A DNA stretch of 64,000 nucleotides from Dictyostelium discoideum (Eukaryota): positions 1,088,001-1,152,000 of the forward strand of contig CM000154.2 in the NCBI GenBank assembly GCA_000004695.1, in the 5' to 3' direction. The position numbers were made by a program, and so were the translations under genes. Of the stretch, positions 59,360 through 63,873 are shown piece after piece (position 1 is the first letter of the stretch; every line of letters begins with the position of its first letter). The notes beneath the pieces were generated by a model that saw only the letters and a list, made by a program, of their open reading frames with translations, ran no database searches and was not told where the DNA came from.

Positions 59360-62300
59360 ATGCAACCAAATCAATTAAAAAGACCATCATTAAATCATAG
59401 ATTTGAGCCATATACACTCAAACATTTAACAATTTGTAAAAGATGTGAAAAAGAAATTATTGGTGTATCAAATTCAGCTCAAATATGTTACAGTAAGATG
59501 TTATAAATATTTTTTTTTATTTTTATAAATTTTTATTTATTTATTTTTATAATACTAAAATATTTTTTTTTTTTTTTTATTTACTTTTTTTATTATTATT
59601 TTTTTTATTTTTTAAAAATAAACCCAATCCCCTTTCAATCTCACTCTCCCCACTAATCAAAAAAATCTTTATTTTTTTTTTTTTTTCCACACACATTTTT
59701 TTTTTTTTTTTTTTTTTTTTATTTTTTTAATTTTTGTAATTTTTCAAATTTATCTATTTTTAGGTTGTAAAAATATTTATCATACAAGATGTTGTAAAGA
59801 AATAGAAACAAAGAAATTAGAATTAATATGTCTCGGTCCACCAAAAAAGATAAAAACAGTTTGGAAAATAGCTTTAATTCCAAGTTTATTTAAATCTTTA
59901 TTTTCAAAATCAAGTAAGTATTATTTTTATAATTTTATTTATTTATTTTTTTTATTTATTTTTATTAACATTTCAATCATTTATTTATAAATAAAAATAA
60001 TAATAATAATTATTAAAGAGGTAATAGTTAATTATAGTCAGCAATTAATAAATGAAAAAACATTTACGTTAGAAGCTATAAAAATATGGGTCGATGTGAT
60101 GAGAGTTGATAACGATAGATATATACAAATAACTAAATATTACGATATATTCGAGTATGTAGATGTTTAAAATTATTTAAATATATATATATATTTAATT
60201 TTATATTAATTATTATTATTGTTATTATTATAGTAATTTAAAAATTAGTGAAGAAGTTTTTAATTATATAATAAATATGATCATTGAAAAGGATATAAAT
60301 TTACCAATGGTTAATATAGAATTTCCTGTCGATCTACATTCCAGTGTACAACAAAATCAATATATAAATGACCAAGCTGTATCACAAGAACAAAAACAAC
60401 AACAACAACAACTACAACAACAACTAATATTACAACAACAACAACAACAACAACTACAACAACAACAACTTAATGAATCCTATGATAATAGTACCATTAA
60501 TAATCTAAACTATAGCAATGATATTTCTAATGCATTTTCACCAAGATCCGTATTTAGTGCATTGGAATTGTCATCAAATGCACAGGTAATGAATGCATTG
60601 GAATTAAGTGTACCTTTTAACGAAGACGATAATAATGATGATAGTACATTAAGTGCAAGCACCTACAATAGAAGAAATAGTAATAAAAATAAAAATAGTA
60701 ATAAAAACAATACATCTTCATCTTCATCGGCACCAGCATCAGCATCTTCATCAAAACATTCAAATTTAAATGAATCCTTTTCATCATCAACAACTGCAGC
60801 GGCAATTGTAAATAATATCGATAATAGTAATAATAGTAATAATTTGGCGGCGTTATCTCCAAGATCAACAGCATCCACTACTACAACTACTACAACTACA
60901 ACTACTACAACATCACCAAAATCAAATAATCATCATCATCATCAACATCATCATCAAAATAGTAAATCAAGAAAACCATCAACAATTATAATTAATAAAA
61001 AAAAGATTAAAAGTCCAAAGAATAAATCAAGTAAACGATATATGTTAACAGAACAATATAAATGGTCAACACAAATGATTGGATTACAAATACTATATAG
61101 AATATTATTTAATGAAAAGAATATGATTCATTTTTTAAATGATAAATTTATGGCACCATTGGCTGTCTTATATCCAATATTGATTAATCGTTTAAAGGCA
61201 ATTTCATTAGGGAGTGATAATAATAATAATAATAATAACAACAACAATAATAACAACAATAATAGTAACAATAATAATAATAATAATAATGAAGATTTCA
61301 AATTACTTTCTATTAATTGTAAGTTATTAATATCAATTTTGAATAGAATGTTAGACTTTGAAACTTTGATACCACTATTTTTCACCAATAAAGTAATTGA
61401 ATCTATTGCTAAAGTAAATTCAGATCGTGAATCATTAAGAGGTAAATTAAGTAAGGATGAATTTGAAGTAATGGATAGAGTGGTATTGTTATTGGGTAAA
61501 TATTTTCATTTGGAACCATATCATAGTTTGATAGAAAGAAGACCAGAATGGATTGATATGATTATCAACTATAGTGTCGAGCATAAAGTTGGAATTTTAC
61601 ATCACGAAATCACCAGAAATGAGGTGAAAATCAATGTTGAAATTTATGATTCACCATTGTGTACAGTGTATAGTGGCGTTTATAATGGTATGGATGTTGC
61701 TATTAAAGAGTTTTCTCAAGATGGTATGGGTTTCGATTGGGTTTCATTTTATAAGGAGATTACTATCGTATCAGCATCTCAACATCCAAAAGTTATCAAA
61801 TGCTATGGCGCCCATACAAAGAATACCAATAAACCATTCATTGTCACAGAGTTATGTAGTAGAGGTACCATATCGAATGCATTGAATCAAATTAGAAAAA
61901 CAACGGGTCAACCACCAGCTATACCTTTGATAGTTCATATGGCAATTGATGCCGCTCAATCATTGGAGTTTATTCATTCAAAAAATATAATTCATCGTGA
62001 TGTAAAGGGTAATAATTTCTTGGTCAATGAAAATTGGGAAGTGAAACTCATCGATTTTGGCGTTTCCAGATTCGTAGAGGCTAGATTAGGTTACACCATC
62101 GTTGGAACTCCGAATTATATGGCTTGTGAACTTTTCAATGGTCAACCATATCATCAACCAGCCGATGTCTTTTCATTTGGTGTAGTTTTATGGGAGATGT
62201 TCACTCAAGATACCCCATATAAAAACTTGACAAGAATTGAACAAGCTTTATTCGTACAAAGTGGTGGTAGACCAACAATTCCACCAACTGTTCCAACCAC

Positions 62301-63873
62301 TATTGCAAATCTAATCGAAAGTTGTTGGGTACAAACACCTCATCTTCGTCCAACCTTTACAGAGATCCTCAAGGTCTTCTATTCCCTCCTAACTCCACCA
62401 CCTGATAATGAACATTTGGTACCAGTGGTAACTAGATTATTCAATTCCTCGATCATTCAATTGAAAATTTTAAAATATTTAGATACGAATACCCTCTTAA
62501 ATTGTGGTTTGGCTTCTCGTCAACTAAGATATAACCTTTACAATGGTATCTCTATGGAAAAGAAAACATTTTCAAACTTTTGGATAAAATTAATGAATTT
62601 TTCAAAATCTAAATTCAGATATGAATTATTATCACCATCTGAAAGAAAAAATGATTCAACTGGTAGTTCTCCAATTATTATGTGTATTCAACCATTTTCT
62701 CCAAATTCTCAATCAAAGAATAATAATAATAATAAAAATCATCATAGTGATGATATTATCGATGATGATGATGATGATGATGATGATAAAACATATCCTT
62801 CATTAGTAATTCCATTTTCAGCTTCTTCACCAACTCTTAATATAAATAGTGAAAATAAAAATAATAATAATGTTAATGAGGATAAAACTTCTGATACAAG
62901 TAGTAATAGTAATAATAATAATAATAATAATAATAATAATAATAATAATAATAATAATAATAATAATAATAACAATAACAATAATAATAGCAATAATAAT
63001 AATAATAATAATAATTTAAGACAAAATCAATTTTTAGGAAATGATTTAAATAAAAGTCAAGACAATAATCAATTAATGGATGGAAGTGGTGGTCGAAGGG
63101 ATAGAAGTAGAAGTAAAAGCAGAAGTAGAAGTGCAAGTCCTTCAAACAATCATCTTCATGACAAAAGTTTAATGGGTTTATTATCTTCTTCCCAAACTAG
63201 TGAGATTGGTGATAATAATACAAATAATAATAGTGATAATGAAGTTGATAATAATAATAATAATAATAATAATAATAATAATAATAATAATAATAATAAT
63301 AATAATAATAATAATAATAATAATAATAATAATAATAATAATAATAATAATAATAATAATAACAATAATATAGATAATAATAATAATAATAAAGATAATA
63401 ATAATATTTTATCATCTGAAAATAATAATAATACTACAGTTATTGAACAACAACAACAACAACAAAATGTTACTAATAATAATAGTAATGAACCAAAAAA
63501 TAGTAATAATGAACCAAAAAATAGTAATATTACAAATAATATAGTTAATCCAAATGTTTTTACAACTACAACCACAACAACTACTACGACTCGAACTACT
63601 ACAACAACTGTTTATGATGGGACAGGTACATTAAATAACCTATTATTTAAAATCAATGATGGTGGAATAATATCATCAGATTCTTCAAATTCATTGTCTG
63701 ACCCAGAGAGTGAAGAATATTCAATGCCAATTAAAAGATCATCAAGTATAAGATCACCAGGTCCCGTATCTGCTATATCTCCTCTTTTTAAAAGTTTATC
63801 TCCAAATTTATCTCCAATCGTTCCAAATATTATAAATGGTTATTCTTTTGAGAATACCAGTGCTTGTGATTAA
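59360..63873 (+). CDS. TKL-group protein kinase with an N-terminal C1-like zinc finger split by an intron and a C-terminal F-box-like motif. Exons are 59360..59492, 59764..59913, 60019..60154 and 60249..63873, giving about 1347 aa.
   Basis: Exon 1 (MQPNQLKRPSLNHRFEPYTLKHLTICKRCEKEIIGVSNSAQICY) ends at GTAAGA at 59493. Exon 2 (SCKNIYHTRCCKEIETKKLELICLGPP...) runs from the AG at 59762-59763 to GTAAGT at 59914, completing the H-x12-C-x2-C-x13-C-x2-C-x4-H-x2-C pattern. Exon 3 runs from the AG at 60017-60018 to GTATGT at 60155. Exon 4 starts after the AG at 60247-60248. The kinase domain spans about 61620-62400 (VAIKEF, HRDVKGNNFL, DFGVS, GTPNYMACE). The F-box-like segment is IIQLKILKYLDTNTLLNCGLASRQLRYNLYN. 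The C-terminus has long N/T runs. The stop is TAA at 63871-63873. Confidence 0.7.
63250..63365 (+). repeat. (AAT)n trinucleotide tract of about 37 units encoding poly-N in the kinase C-terminal region.
   Basis: Read directly. Further (AAT)n runs are at 62906-63010 and 42100-42250. Confidence 0.95.

Follow-up and report, generated by a model that had tools for sequence, protein, structure and literature searches.

A C1 zinc finger, a TKL kinase domain, and a divergent F-box in the predicted product of Dictyostelium discoideum pkcA

The pkcA gene of Dictyostelium discoideum lies in the window analyzed here (the whole 64,000-nucleotide stretch of DNA) and probably encodes a multidomain protein composed of a C1 zinc finger, an armadillo-like domain, a TKL kinase domain, a divergent F-box, and an Asn-rich tail, in which the F-box would tether the kinase to Skp1/SCF and the kinase is not a protein kinase C (PKC) of the AGC type. 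The original prediction of C1, TKL kinase, and F-box in one protein holds up in relatives, which carry the same three modules, and in two of these (P0008 and P0079) C1, kinase, and F-box lie within a single uninterrupted ORF. The post-kinase F-box segment is found at a fixed distance in every family member, Arcella included, and the predicted C1–helical–kinase–F-box architecture is conserved across Amoebozoa, from dictyostelids to Arcella. Its description as rare is thus apt for kinases in general, but the same architecture defines a conserved amoebozoan family.

The C1–kinase–F-box architecture of pkcA is already known and not new, because the F-box and the Skp1 association are in print in the supplement to a 2022 study (Boland et al., J Biol Chem, PMC9485057), and C1 domains on TKL kinases were reported in the 2006 Dictyostelium kinome paper (PMC1420674). 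What the present analysis adds is family-wide support for the F-box, a conserved intron inside the C1 module, an armadillo-like middle domain, and a preferred exon 4 acceptor.

Gene identity and exon structure

We assign the locus to D. discoideum pkcA because both published RT-PCR primers (PMC6589559) match the window exactly, each of them once (62058-62080 on the forward strand and 62384-62404 on the reverse strand), against a chance expectation of zero. Figure S3 of Boland et al. predicts an F-box for pkcA and gives its other domains as "ZF+Kinase"; this entry and the F-box string shown there, which runs from RLFNSS to NFWIKL, correspond to the product of the window. The window product and the published PkcA are the same gene, with no difference in kind. 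Literature searches for DDB_G0288147 and for the combination of kinome, F-box, and TKL returned no match. The primary PkcA paper is reportedly that of Mohamed et al. 2015 (Dev Biol), and phenotypes of pkcA mutants are said to have been published. The gene and its predicted product comprise the following features:

59360-63873, + strand: pkcA gene, four exons (splice reconstruction)
59360..59492, + strand: exon 1, with the start codon and the beginning of C1, from H13 to C-Y and base 1 of the Ser codon (splice reconstruction)
59493..59763, + strand: intron 1, GT..AG, phase 1, in the Ser codon of C-Y-S-C (splice reconstruction)
59764..59913, + strand: exon 2, with the remainder of C1 and the conserved LFKSLFSKS linker (splice reconstruction; orthologue alignment)
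60019..60154, + strand: exon 3, start of the armadillo-like domain, ending in YYDIFD (splice reconstruction; aligns with orthologues)
60234..63873, + strand: exon 4, with the rest of the helical domain, kinase, F-box, tail, and stop codon (preferred acceptor 60234)
59396..59831, + strand: C1 module, aa 13-67, spanning intron 1 (Pfam C1_1; motif)
61036..61593, + strand: armadillo-like alpha-solenoid, conserved C-terminal part, directly before the kinase (AF2 model; Foldseek)
61624..62391, + strand: TKL-type Ser/Thr kinase domain, aa 604-859 (Pfam PK_Tyr_Ser-Thr)
62428..62592, + strand: divergent F-box, aa 872-926, VTRLFNSSIIQLKILKYLDTNTLLNCGLASRQLRYNLYNGISMEKKTFSNFWIKL (family-level homology; Fig. 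S3 of PMC9485057)

The donor of exon 1 reads A/GTAAGA at 59493, and intron 1 has the same position and phase in C. fasciculata (donor after 3157 and acceptor 3237 of L001); its position is kept in A. subglobosum, too. The linker in exon 2 corresponds to an LFKKLFSK motif common to the orthologues. Intron 3, placed after DIF(D/N), keeps its position in C. fasciculata and A. subglobosum, and the exon order is conserved in other dictyostelids. Two acceptors for exon 4 are in frame, with 60249 yielding a product of 1347 aa and 60234 one of 1352 aa; we prefer the latter because it restores the residues NLKIS, which fit both the orthologues and the homologous acceptor of C. fasciculata. The four-exon model of the original prediction is retained, whereas its product of 1347 aa, which depends on acceptor 60249, gives way to the 1352-aa alternative. 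An exact look-up of both products in the protein collection found neither. The product ends in an Asn-rich tail of ~430 aa, for which no Pfam match was obtained.

In A. subglobosum, an exon matching the C1 exon of pkcA was found upstream of the public gene model. We flag as annotation problems the exon 4 acceptor and the absence of the C1 exon from the A. subglobosum model, and probably also from that of P. violaceum. Intron 1 of pkcA holds a C/CA-rich patch at ~59620-59695. No tRNA genes were found in the window.

C1 finger, helical domain, and kinase

Once joined, exons 1 and 2 encode H-x12-C-x2-C-x13-C-x2-C-x4-H-x2-C, with the intron falling in the second Cys-x2-Cys pair as had been proposed, and Pfam C1_1 (PF00130) exceeds its cut-off of 26.5 bits both on the long product (27.3 bits) and on the N-terminus alone (32.2 bits), matching over profile positions 1-48 of 53. 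When the full ligand pattern was tested (H-x12-C-x2-C-x13/14-C-x2-C-x4-H-x2-C-x7-C), the first seven ligands were in place, and the candidates for the eighth Cys stand at x0 (adjacent) or x12 instead of x7; in P0008 and P0079, the canonical pattern is complete. The best matches among solved structures are the C1 domains of PKC beta, theta, and gamma. Typical C1 domains, which bind diacylglycerol and phorbol esters, are characterized by the consensus residues Pro11, Gly23, and Gln27. Aligned to C1B of PKC theta, the C1 of PkcA retains Gly23 and carries Leu for Pro11 and Ser for Gln27, departing from this consensus, and all three residues are kept in P0007, P0008, and P0079. We read the PkcA finger as atypical because Pro11 and Gln27 are missing and the last Cys is displaced, and it probably acts, like that of RAF/KSR, as a membrane or autoinhibitory module rather than a high-affinity diacylglycerol/phorbol-ester sensor.

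The armadillo-like domain is interrupted in D. discoideum by a long low-complexity insert. For the corresponding domain of the C. fasciculata orthologue, AF2 predicts an all-helical fold (pLDDT 80.7, pTM 0.78). When Foldseek was used to compare the helical domain with the PDB, no match was obtained at E <= 0.001; CNOT9/Rcd1, importin-alpha, and beta-catenin repeats came out best, each as a weak match (E of at least 0.04), and P0007 displays a weak Pfam match to Rcd1. Because of this weakness of the structural matches, we name the domain "armadillo-like" and place it in no family.

The original assignment of a TKL-type kinase to exon 4 is borne out by Pfam, where PK_Tyr_Ser-Thr (E = 5.7e-50, 170.5 bits) outscores Pkinase (153.1 bits), and by the nearest solved kinases, with CTR1 best (6.8e-37), followed by ZAK/MLT and tyrosine kinases. 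The nearest named proteins outside the family are plant STY8/STY46 and the TKL/DRK kinases of Phytophthora. The AF2 model of the kinase is confident, the motifs VAIK, HRDVKGNN, and DFG are present, and a Glu that is invariant across the family (E52 of alignment A1) falls within the predicted alpha-C helix. Hence, the catalytic residues all appear to be in place, yet full activity may be questionable because the P-loop (IYDSPLCTVY) contains no glycines, a replacement that is conserved family-wide.

Two readings would take this product apart or place it elsewhere, and we hold both to be highly improbable. The gene name, the label "PKC orthologue" in PMC6589559, and the C1 matches described above would fit a true protein kinase C, that is, a diacylglycerol-activated AGC kinase. 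However, the kinase domain is of TKL type, with no PKC among its best 60 solved matches; Pkinase_C tail, C2, and PB1 gave no match even at E <= 10; the single C1 is atypical, lacking Pro11 and Gln27; and the kinome paper states that Dictyostelium has no PKC (PMC1420674). On these grounds we rejected PKC orthology: despite its name, PkcA is, by its domain content, not an AGC-type protein kinase C. The suggestion that exons 1-3 form a separate small gene for a C1 protein, with the kinase gene beginning at the ATG at 60277, draws on the long ORF that this ATG opens and on intron 3, read-through of which reaches a stop within a few codons. Against it, the residues spanning the exon 3/4 junction (YYDIFD/NLKISEEVFNY) are collinear with single orthologous proteins, C. 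fasciculata and A. subglobosum both have an intron at this very junction, and P0007, P0079, P0080, and P0082 combine C1, helical domain, and kinase, with P0079 doing so in one uninterrupted ORF. Moreover, Boland et al. give the pkcA product as "ZF+Kinase" (PMC9485057), and the upstream neighbor is a complete FGAM synthase gene that ends at 57420. A separate upstream gene was therefore rejected, with exon order and two intron positions conserved, and we retain a single four-exon pkcA.

The F-box segment in D. discoideum and its family

The F-box-like core IIQLKILKYLDTNTLLNCGLASRQLRYNLY is located at 62452-62541 and starts at aa 880. With the kinase ending near aa 859, the gap between the two is ~20 aa and not the ~90 aa given originally. 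In a Pfam check of the spliced product, the F-box of D. discoideum alone stays below threshold, with 17.5-21.7 bits for F-box-like (PF12937; threshold 24.3) and 14.1-18.1 bits for F-box (PF00646; threshold 20.5), both matches spanning only profile positions 8-33. The canonical Leu-Pro is replaced, with F-N-S-S in D. discoideum versus the consensus I-L-P-E, as is the Trp of helix 3, where SRQLRY stands against CKKWRK with Leu in the place of Trp. AF2 places helices at model residues 283-288, 295-302, and 306-318, at pLDDT < 50 and from an alignment of 7 sequences.

The family presents a clearer picture. Pfam F-box or F-box-like matches 6 of the 7 members at E <= 1 (best E 3.3e-08), and the curated F-box cut-off is passed by the full-length proteins P0002 (30.9 and 29.7 bits), P0008 (25.4), and P0079 (21.5). 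Compared with solved structures, the family profile A2 matches FBXL2 (6.6e-05), FBXW8 (4.4e-04), and FBXL5 (1.8e-03), as well as Skp2, KDM2A/B, beta-TrCP, and FBXO3, all aligned at the F-box. In the family, Leu-Pro usually has Ser or Asp in place of its Pro, and the helix-3 Trp is retained in C. fasciculata. Searching for homologues with the family alignment yielded for the most part short kinase fragments from metagenomes, and among the new matches only P0121 carries the F-box tail (own HMM). The F-box is thus significant because family members and the family profile match F-boxes, and not by virtue of the D. discoideum sequence alone; judged by this homology, it is real at the family level. 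It is no quirk of D. discoideum, and distant family members carry fully canonical C1 and F-box motifs, which makes it of interest to studies of SCF and oxygen sensing in slug signaling.

Skp1 association and comparison with known systems

In Fig. S3 of Boland et al., pkcA carries the class code "bs", which denotes a BLASTp-predicted F-box together with co-immunoprecipitation with Skp1-myc from slugs (mAb 9E10), and is marked "PhyA enhanced: slug", PhyA being the Skp1 prolyl hydroxylase (PMC9485057). The association between PkcA and Skp1 comes from a single proteomic data set, presented in the supplement only (PMC9485057), and a search of the literature found no directed validation of it. Together with the F-box matches of the family profile, this slug co-immunoprecipitation supports the original idea of the F-box as a link between kinase and SCF. 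The F-box would dock the PkcA kinase on Skp1/Cul1/Rbx1, and this docking may serve stage- and oxygen-dependent control of the abundance of PkcA itself. Such self-turnover is favored because the stability of MEKKalpha, an F-box/WD40 kinase, is controlled by ubiquitination (PMC5666861), and because Boland et al. propose that some F-box proteins are enzymes with an F-box for their own turnover (PMC9485057). Control of its own abundance would thus be the most likely main purpose of the SCF tether, although we place its chance slightly below even.

The alternatives concern what the segment does, if it does anything. It could be a helical extension of the kinase, either decayed or there by coincidence, that no longer binds Skp1, with the proteomic match being indirect, and the sub-threshold Pfam scores, the lost Leu-Pro motif and helix-3 Trp, the low AF2 confidence, and its place among the most divergent F-box sequences of the published figure all point this way. 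We nevertheless consider this improbable, as every family member keeps the F-box hydrophobic pattern in an unchanged position, the C. fasciculata orthologue reaches 30.9 bits for its F-box (cut-off 20.5), the family profile matches almost only F-boxes, and the F-box of JcdI, which also lacks the Pro, is described as validated in PMC9485057. A chance F-box match was rejected in view of this family conservation and the F-box specificity of the profile. If the F-box is functional, PkcA could instead be an SCF substrate receptor in which the kinase, the armadillo-like domain, or both would capture, and maybe phosphorylate, substrates that the F-box presents to Cul1/Rbx1 for ubiquitination. The reality of the F-box at the family level, the recovery of PkcA with Skp1 (PMC9485057), a confident armadillo-like solenoid of a fold common in substrate receptors, and an architecture kept from dictyostelids to Arcella would all agree with this role. 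Known receptors, however, normally have the F-box ahead of the substrate-binding domain, whereas in PkcA it comes last and is followed by low-complexity sequence only; no substrate of PkcA is known, the solenoid has weak structural matches (E of at least 0.04), and Boland et al. favor self-turnover for enzyme-type F-box proteins. We therefore regard a receptor role as rather unlikely. The probability left over by self-turnover and the receptor role falls to a cullin-free Skp1 complex or a weak, non-functional remnant.

A bolder proposal, to which we give only a slim chance, is that the PkcA family represents an ancient amoebozoan "phosphorylate-and-ubiquitinate" module, in which the kinase itself would be the substrate-recognition subunit of an SCF complex, positioned by the C1 finger and the armadillo-like domain, with its assembly tuned by oxygen-dependent glycosylation of Skp1. 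If true, PkcA would constitute a type of receptor undescribed in animals, fungi, and plants.

RAF and KSR kinases possess one C1 domain without the phorbol-ester consensus residues, N-terminal to a TKL kinase. PkcA resembles them in its single atypical C1 before a TKL kinase but has no Ras-binding domain, and RAF/KSR in turn have neither the F-box nor the armadillo-like domain. PKC shares with PkcA the combination of a C1 finger and a Ser/Thr kinase, but the kinase of PKC belongs to the AGC group and carries a C-terminal tail, the C1 domains of PKC are typical and arranged in tandem, and a C2 domain is present as well; none of these features turned up in PkcA. Among Dictyostelium proteins, the JmjC dioxygenase JcdI likewise combines an enzymatic domain with a divergent F-box that lacks the Pro, and it associates with Skp1; its F-box has been proposed to regulate the level of JcdI itself (PMC9485057); its catalytic domain differs from that of PkcA, and its interaction with Skp1 was examined directly, whereas that of PkcA is derived from proteomics only. 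MEKKalpha (mkkA) is, like PkcA, a Dictyostelium protein kinase with its own F-box. It is, however, a MAP3K of the STE11 family (PMC1420674) with an F-box and WD40 repeats, whereas PkcA belongs to the TKL group, its F-box follows the kinase domain, and a C1 finger and an armadillo-like domain stand in place of WD40.

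Identity and exon structure of pkcA

The gene at 59360-63873 is D. discoideum pkcA, because both RT-PCR primers printed for pkcA by Rijal et al. 2019 (PMC6589559) match the window exactly and once each, at 62058-62080 (+) and 62384-62404 (-). Cells lacking pkcA are reported to show fast cAMP chemotaxis and no chemorepulsion from AprA (PMC6589559). The kinome paper lists no PKC in Dictyostelium and reports that two TKL kinases (DDB0231197 and ARCK-1), as well as PakD, carry C1 domains (PMC1420674). Within the spliced PkcA product, no ankyrin match was found in Pfam. Since ARCK-1 is an ankyrin-repeat kinase, pkcA is presumably DDB0231197.

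The locus has a high A+T content and contains Asn/Gln-rich coding repeats of the kind usual in Dictyostelium; splice reconstruction yields four exons on the + strand with canonical GT..AG splicing.

Exons of pkcA, from the GT..AG splice reconstruction
59360-59492, + strand, exon 1
59764-59913, + strand, exon 2
60019-60154, + strand, exon 3
60234 or 60249 (acceptor) to 63873 (stop), + strand, exon 4

Intron 1 interrupts the Ser codon of C-Y-S-C in phase 1 and so falls within the second Cys pair of the finger, as had been predicted. Exon 4 has two in-frame acceptors, of which 60249 gives the 1347-aa product first proposed and 60234 gives 1352 aa by adding "NLKIS", a segment with which the orthologues agree (NIKIN in C. 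fasciculata). Homology of the acceptor at 60234 to that of C. fasciculata (tag/TAATATTAAAA), together with the restored "NLKIS", favors the 1352-aa model. Intron 1 also contains a C-rich and CA-rich patch at 59620-59695 (aaacccaatcccctttcaatctcactctccccactaatc ... ccacacaca) within otherwise A+T-rich sequence, which could be a candidate regulatory element.

Assignment of exons 1-3 to a separate upstream gene was considered and rejected, given the nature of the upstream neighbor, introns shared with orthologues, and relatives encoded by single ORFs. The neighbor at 53268-57420 codes for an entire purL-type FGAM synthase, whose domains are FGAR-AT N-terminal, linker, PurM-like, AIRS_C, and GATase_5; it is seen as two ORFs, presumably joined by an intron, and its end at 57420 is followed by about 1.9 kb of AT-rich, ORF-free spacer. 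The C1 intron of C. fasciculata is identical in position and phase to pkcA intron 1, lying inside C-T-K-C, and a further shared intron follows DIF(D/N). The public model of A. subglobosum begins at an internal Met after the C1 finger, but it is truncated, because an unannotated upstream exon (about 2786-2890 of its genomic sequence, L002) supplies the beginning of the C1 domain, H-x13-C-x2-C-x15-C-S, and stops at the conserved intron position. The public model of the P. violaceum protein (P0001) likewise begins after the finger. Two more distant relatives, P0008 (C1-kinase-F-box) and P0079 (helical-C1-kinase-F-box), are each encoded by a single uninterrupted ORF on their contigs, which makes the C1-kinase-F-box fusion independent of splice predictions.

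C1 finger, helical domain, kinase, and tail

The predicted C1 module is borne out by C1_1 scores of 27.3 bits on the spliced product and, for the N-terminus by itself, 32.2 bits, both above the Pfam cut-off of 26.5. The best solved matches to this finger (59396-59831) are PKC C1 domains. It nevertheless carries Leu in place of Pro11 and Ser in place of Gln27, with the final Cys shifted from its usual place. Pro11, Gly23, and Gln27 are all retained in the distant members P0007, P0008, and P0079. In P0008 and P0079 the ligand pattern is fully canonical, whereas the dictyostelid fingers are all divergent, which suggests from these alignments that the lipid-binding consensus decayed in dictyostelids. 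By the established distinction between typical and atypical C1 domains, that of D. discoideum more likely belongs to the atypical kind, as do those of RAF and KSR.

The domain between C1 and kinase (60019-61593, aa 95-593) is an armadillo-like alpha-solenoid. An AF2 model of the C. fasciculata counterpart is a confident all-helical solenoid (pLDDT 80.7, pTM 0.78), with weak structural matches (all E >= 0.04) to CNOT9/Rcd1, importin-alpha, and beta-catenin repeats; P0007, another relative, has a weak Pfam Rcd1 match. In D. discoideum, this domain is split by a low-complexity insert of about 250 aa rich in Gln/Asn/Ser/Thr. Domain order varies in the family: C1, helical domain, kinase, and F-box in dictyostelids and in P0007, P0080, and P0082, and a helical domain, C1, kinase, and F-box in the environmental protein P0079 (L005, 184-2688). 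On the Logan contig encoding P0008 (L003), a 220-aa ORF at 24-686 lies in the same orientation as the C1-kinase-F-box ORF and stops 42 nt short of it; this upstream ORF may represent the helical domain set apart by an intron or frameshift.

Exon 4 encodes a TKL-type kinase, as originally read, with PK_Tyr_Ser-Thr (E = 5.7e-50) scoring above Pkinase. VAIK, HRD, and DFG are retained, and the glycine-rich loop has become IYDSPLCTVY (61642-61671, aa 610-619), a glycine-free form conserved in nearly all family members. The C-terminal tail (about 390-430 aa) has no Pfam match and includes poly-Asn runs encoded by long (AAT)n tracts at 62880-63000 and 63250-63365. No orthologue has this tail: the dictyostelid proteins and P0082 terminate within about 65 aa of the F-box, and the environmental relatives within about 150 aa.

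The F-box in D. discoideum and its relatives

On the spliced D. discoideum product alone, the F-box falls below threshold, at 17.5 bits for F-box-like (cut-off 24.3) and 14.1 bits for F-box (cut-off 20.5), and both matches span only profile positions 8-33. By itself, this goes halfway toward the outcome named beforehand as refuting the F-box, an HMM match short of significance. The segment starts at aa 880, about 20 aa beyond the kinase end near aa 859, rather than the roughly 90 aa first estimated. The D. discoideum copy is a divergent one, with other residues in place of Leu-Pro and Leu where helix 3 would have Trp. An AF2 model of kinase plus F-box is good for the kinase, but with pLDDT below 50 it is uninformative on the F-box fold.

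Relatives were found in Polysphondylium violaceum, Cavenderia fasciculata (named "PKC domain-containing protein"), Acytostelium subglobosum, two EukProt gene sets, Arcella intermedia, and several environmental contigs. In all of them the kinase is followed, at a constant spacing, by a conserved segment with the pattern ..(F/L)xYLDxxSLLNxxxVS(R/K)xW(R/K)... Pfam F-box or F-box-like matches six of seven family members (best E 3.3e-08), with the curated F-box cut-off passed by full-length P0002 (C. fasciculata), P0008, and P0079. When run against every sequence in the PDB, a profile built on this segment matches almost exclusively F-box proteins, each aligned at its F-box, including FBXL2 (6.6e-05), FBXW8, FBXL5, Skp2, KDM2A/B, beta-TrCP, and FBXO3. 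An HMM built from the family core detects this tail in every member used to build it and also in P0079, P0080, P0083 (Arcella), and P0121, and in none of the remaining kinases retrieved. Together, the Pfam, PDB profile, and core-HMM matches argue that the F-box is a genuine and ancient feature of the PkcA kinase family.

Putative role of the F-box

The C1-kinase-F-box combination in pkcA is already known. In a compilation of Dictyostelium F-box candidates and Skp1 interactomes (Boland et al. 2022, PMC9485057), the pkcA row of Fig. S3 gives an F-box string identical to that of the window, class "bs", other domains "ZF+Kinase", and "PhyA enhanced: slug". According to its key, "b" denotes an F-box predicted by BLASTp in dictyBase and "s" recovery in the mAb 9E10 slug co-IP, i.e., the Skp1-myc pull-down; code "a" is absent from the row, meaning that the F-box had no UniProt annotation in December 2021. 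From the present analysis and the published data, PkcA is a TKL kinase with a C1 finger, a solenoid, and an F-box conserved across its family, and it is recovered together with Skp1. The original prediction was correct in its observation except for two small errors of detail, and its interpretation of the architecture is supported.

The F-box would dock PkcA on SCF. What such docking would be for is a more tentative matter: regulation of PkcA's own abundance is the likeliest option, at somewhat short of even chances, and some F-box proteins have been argued to be enzymes that carry an F-box solely for regulating their own turnover (PMC9485057). A substrate-receptor function comes next and appears rather unlikely, with the remaining probability going to a non-SCF or vestigial role. 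For self-regulation of abundance, Dictyostelium offers another kinase with its own F-box, MEKKalpha (mkkA), in which the F-box is paired with WD40 and ubiquitination controls the stability of the protein (PMC5666861).
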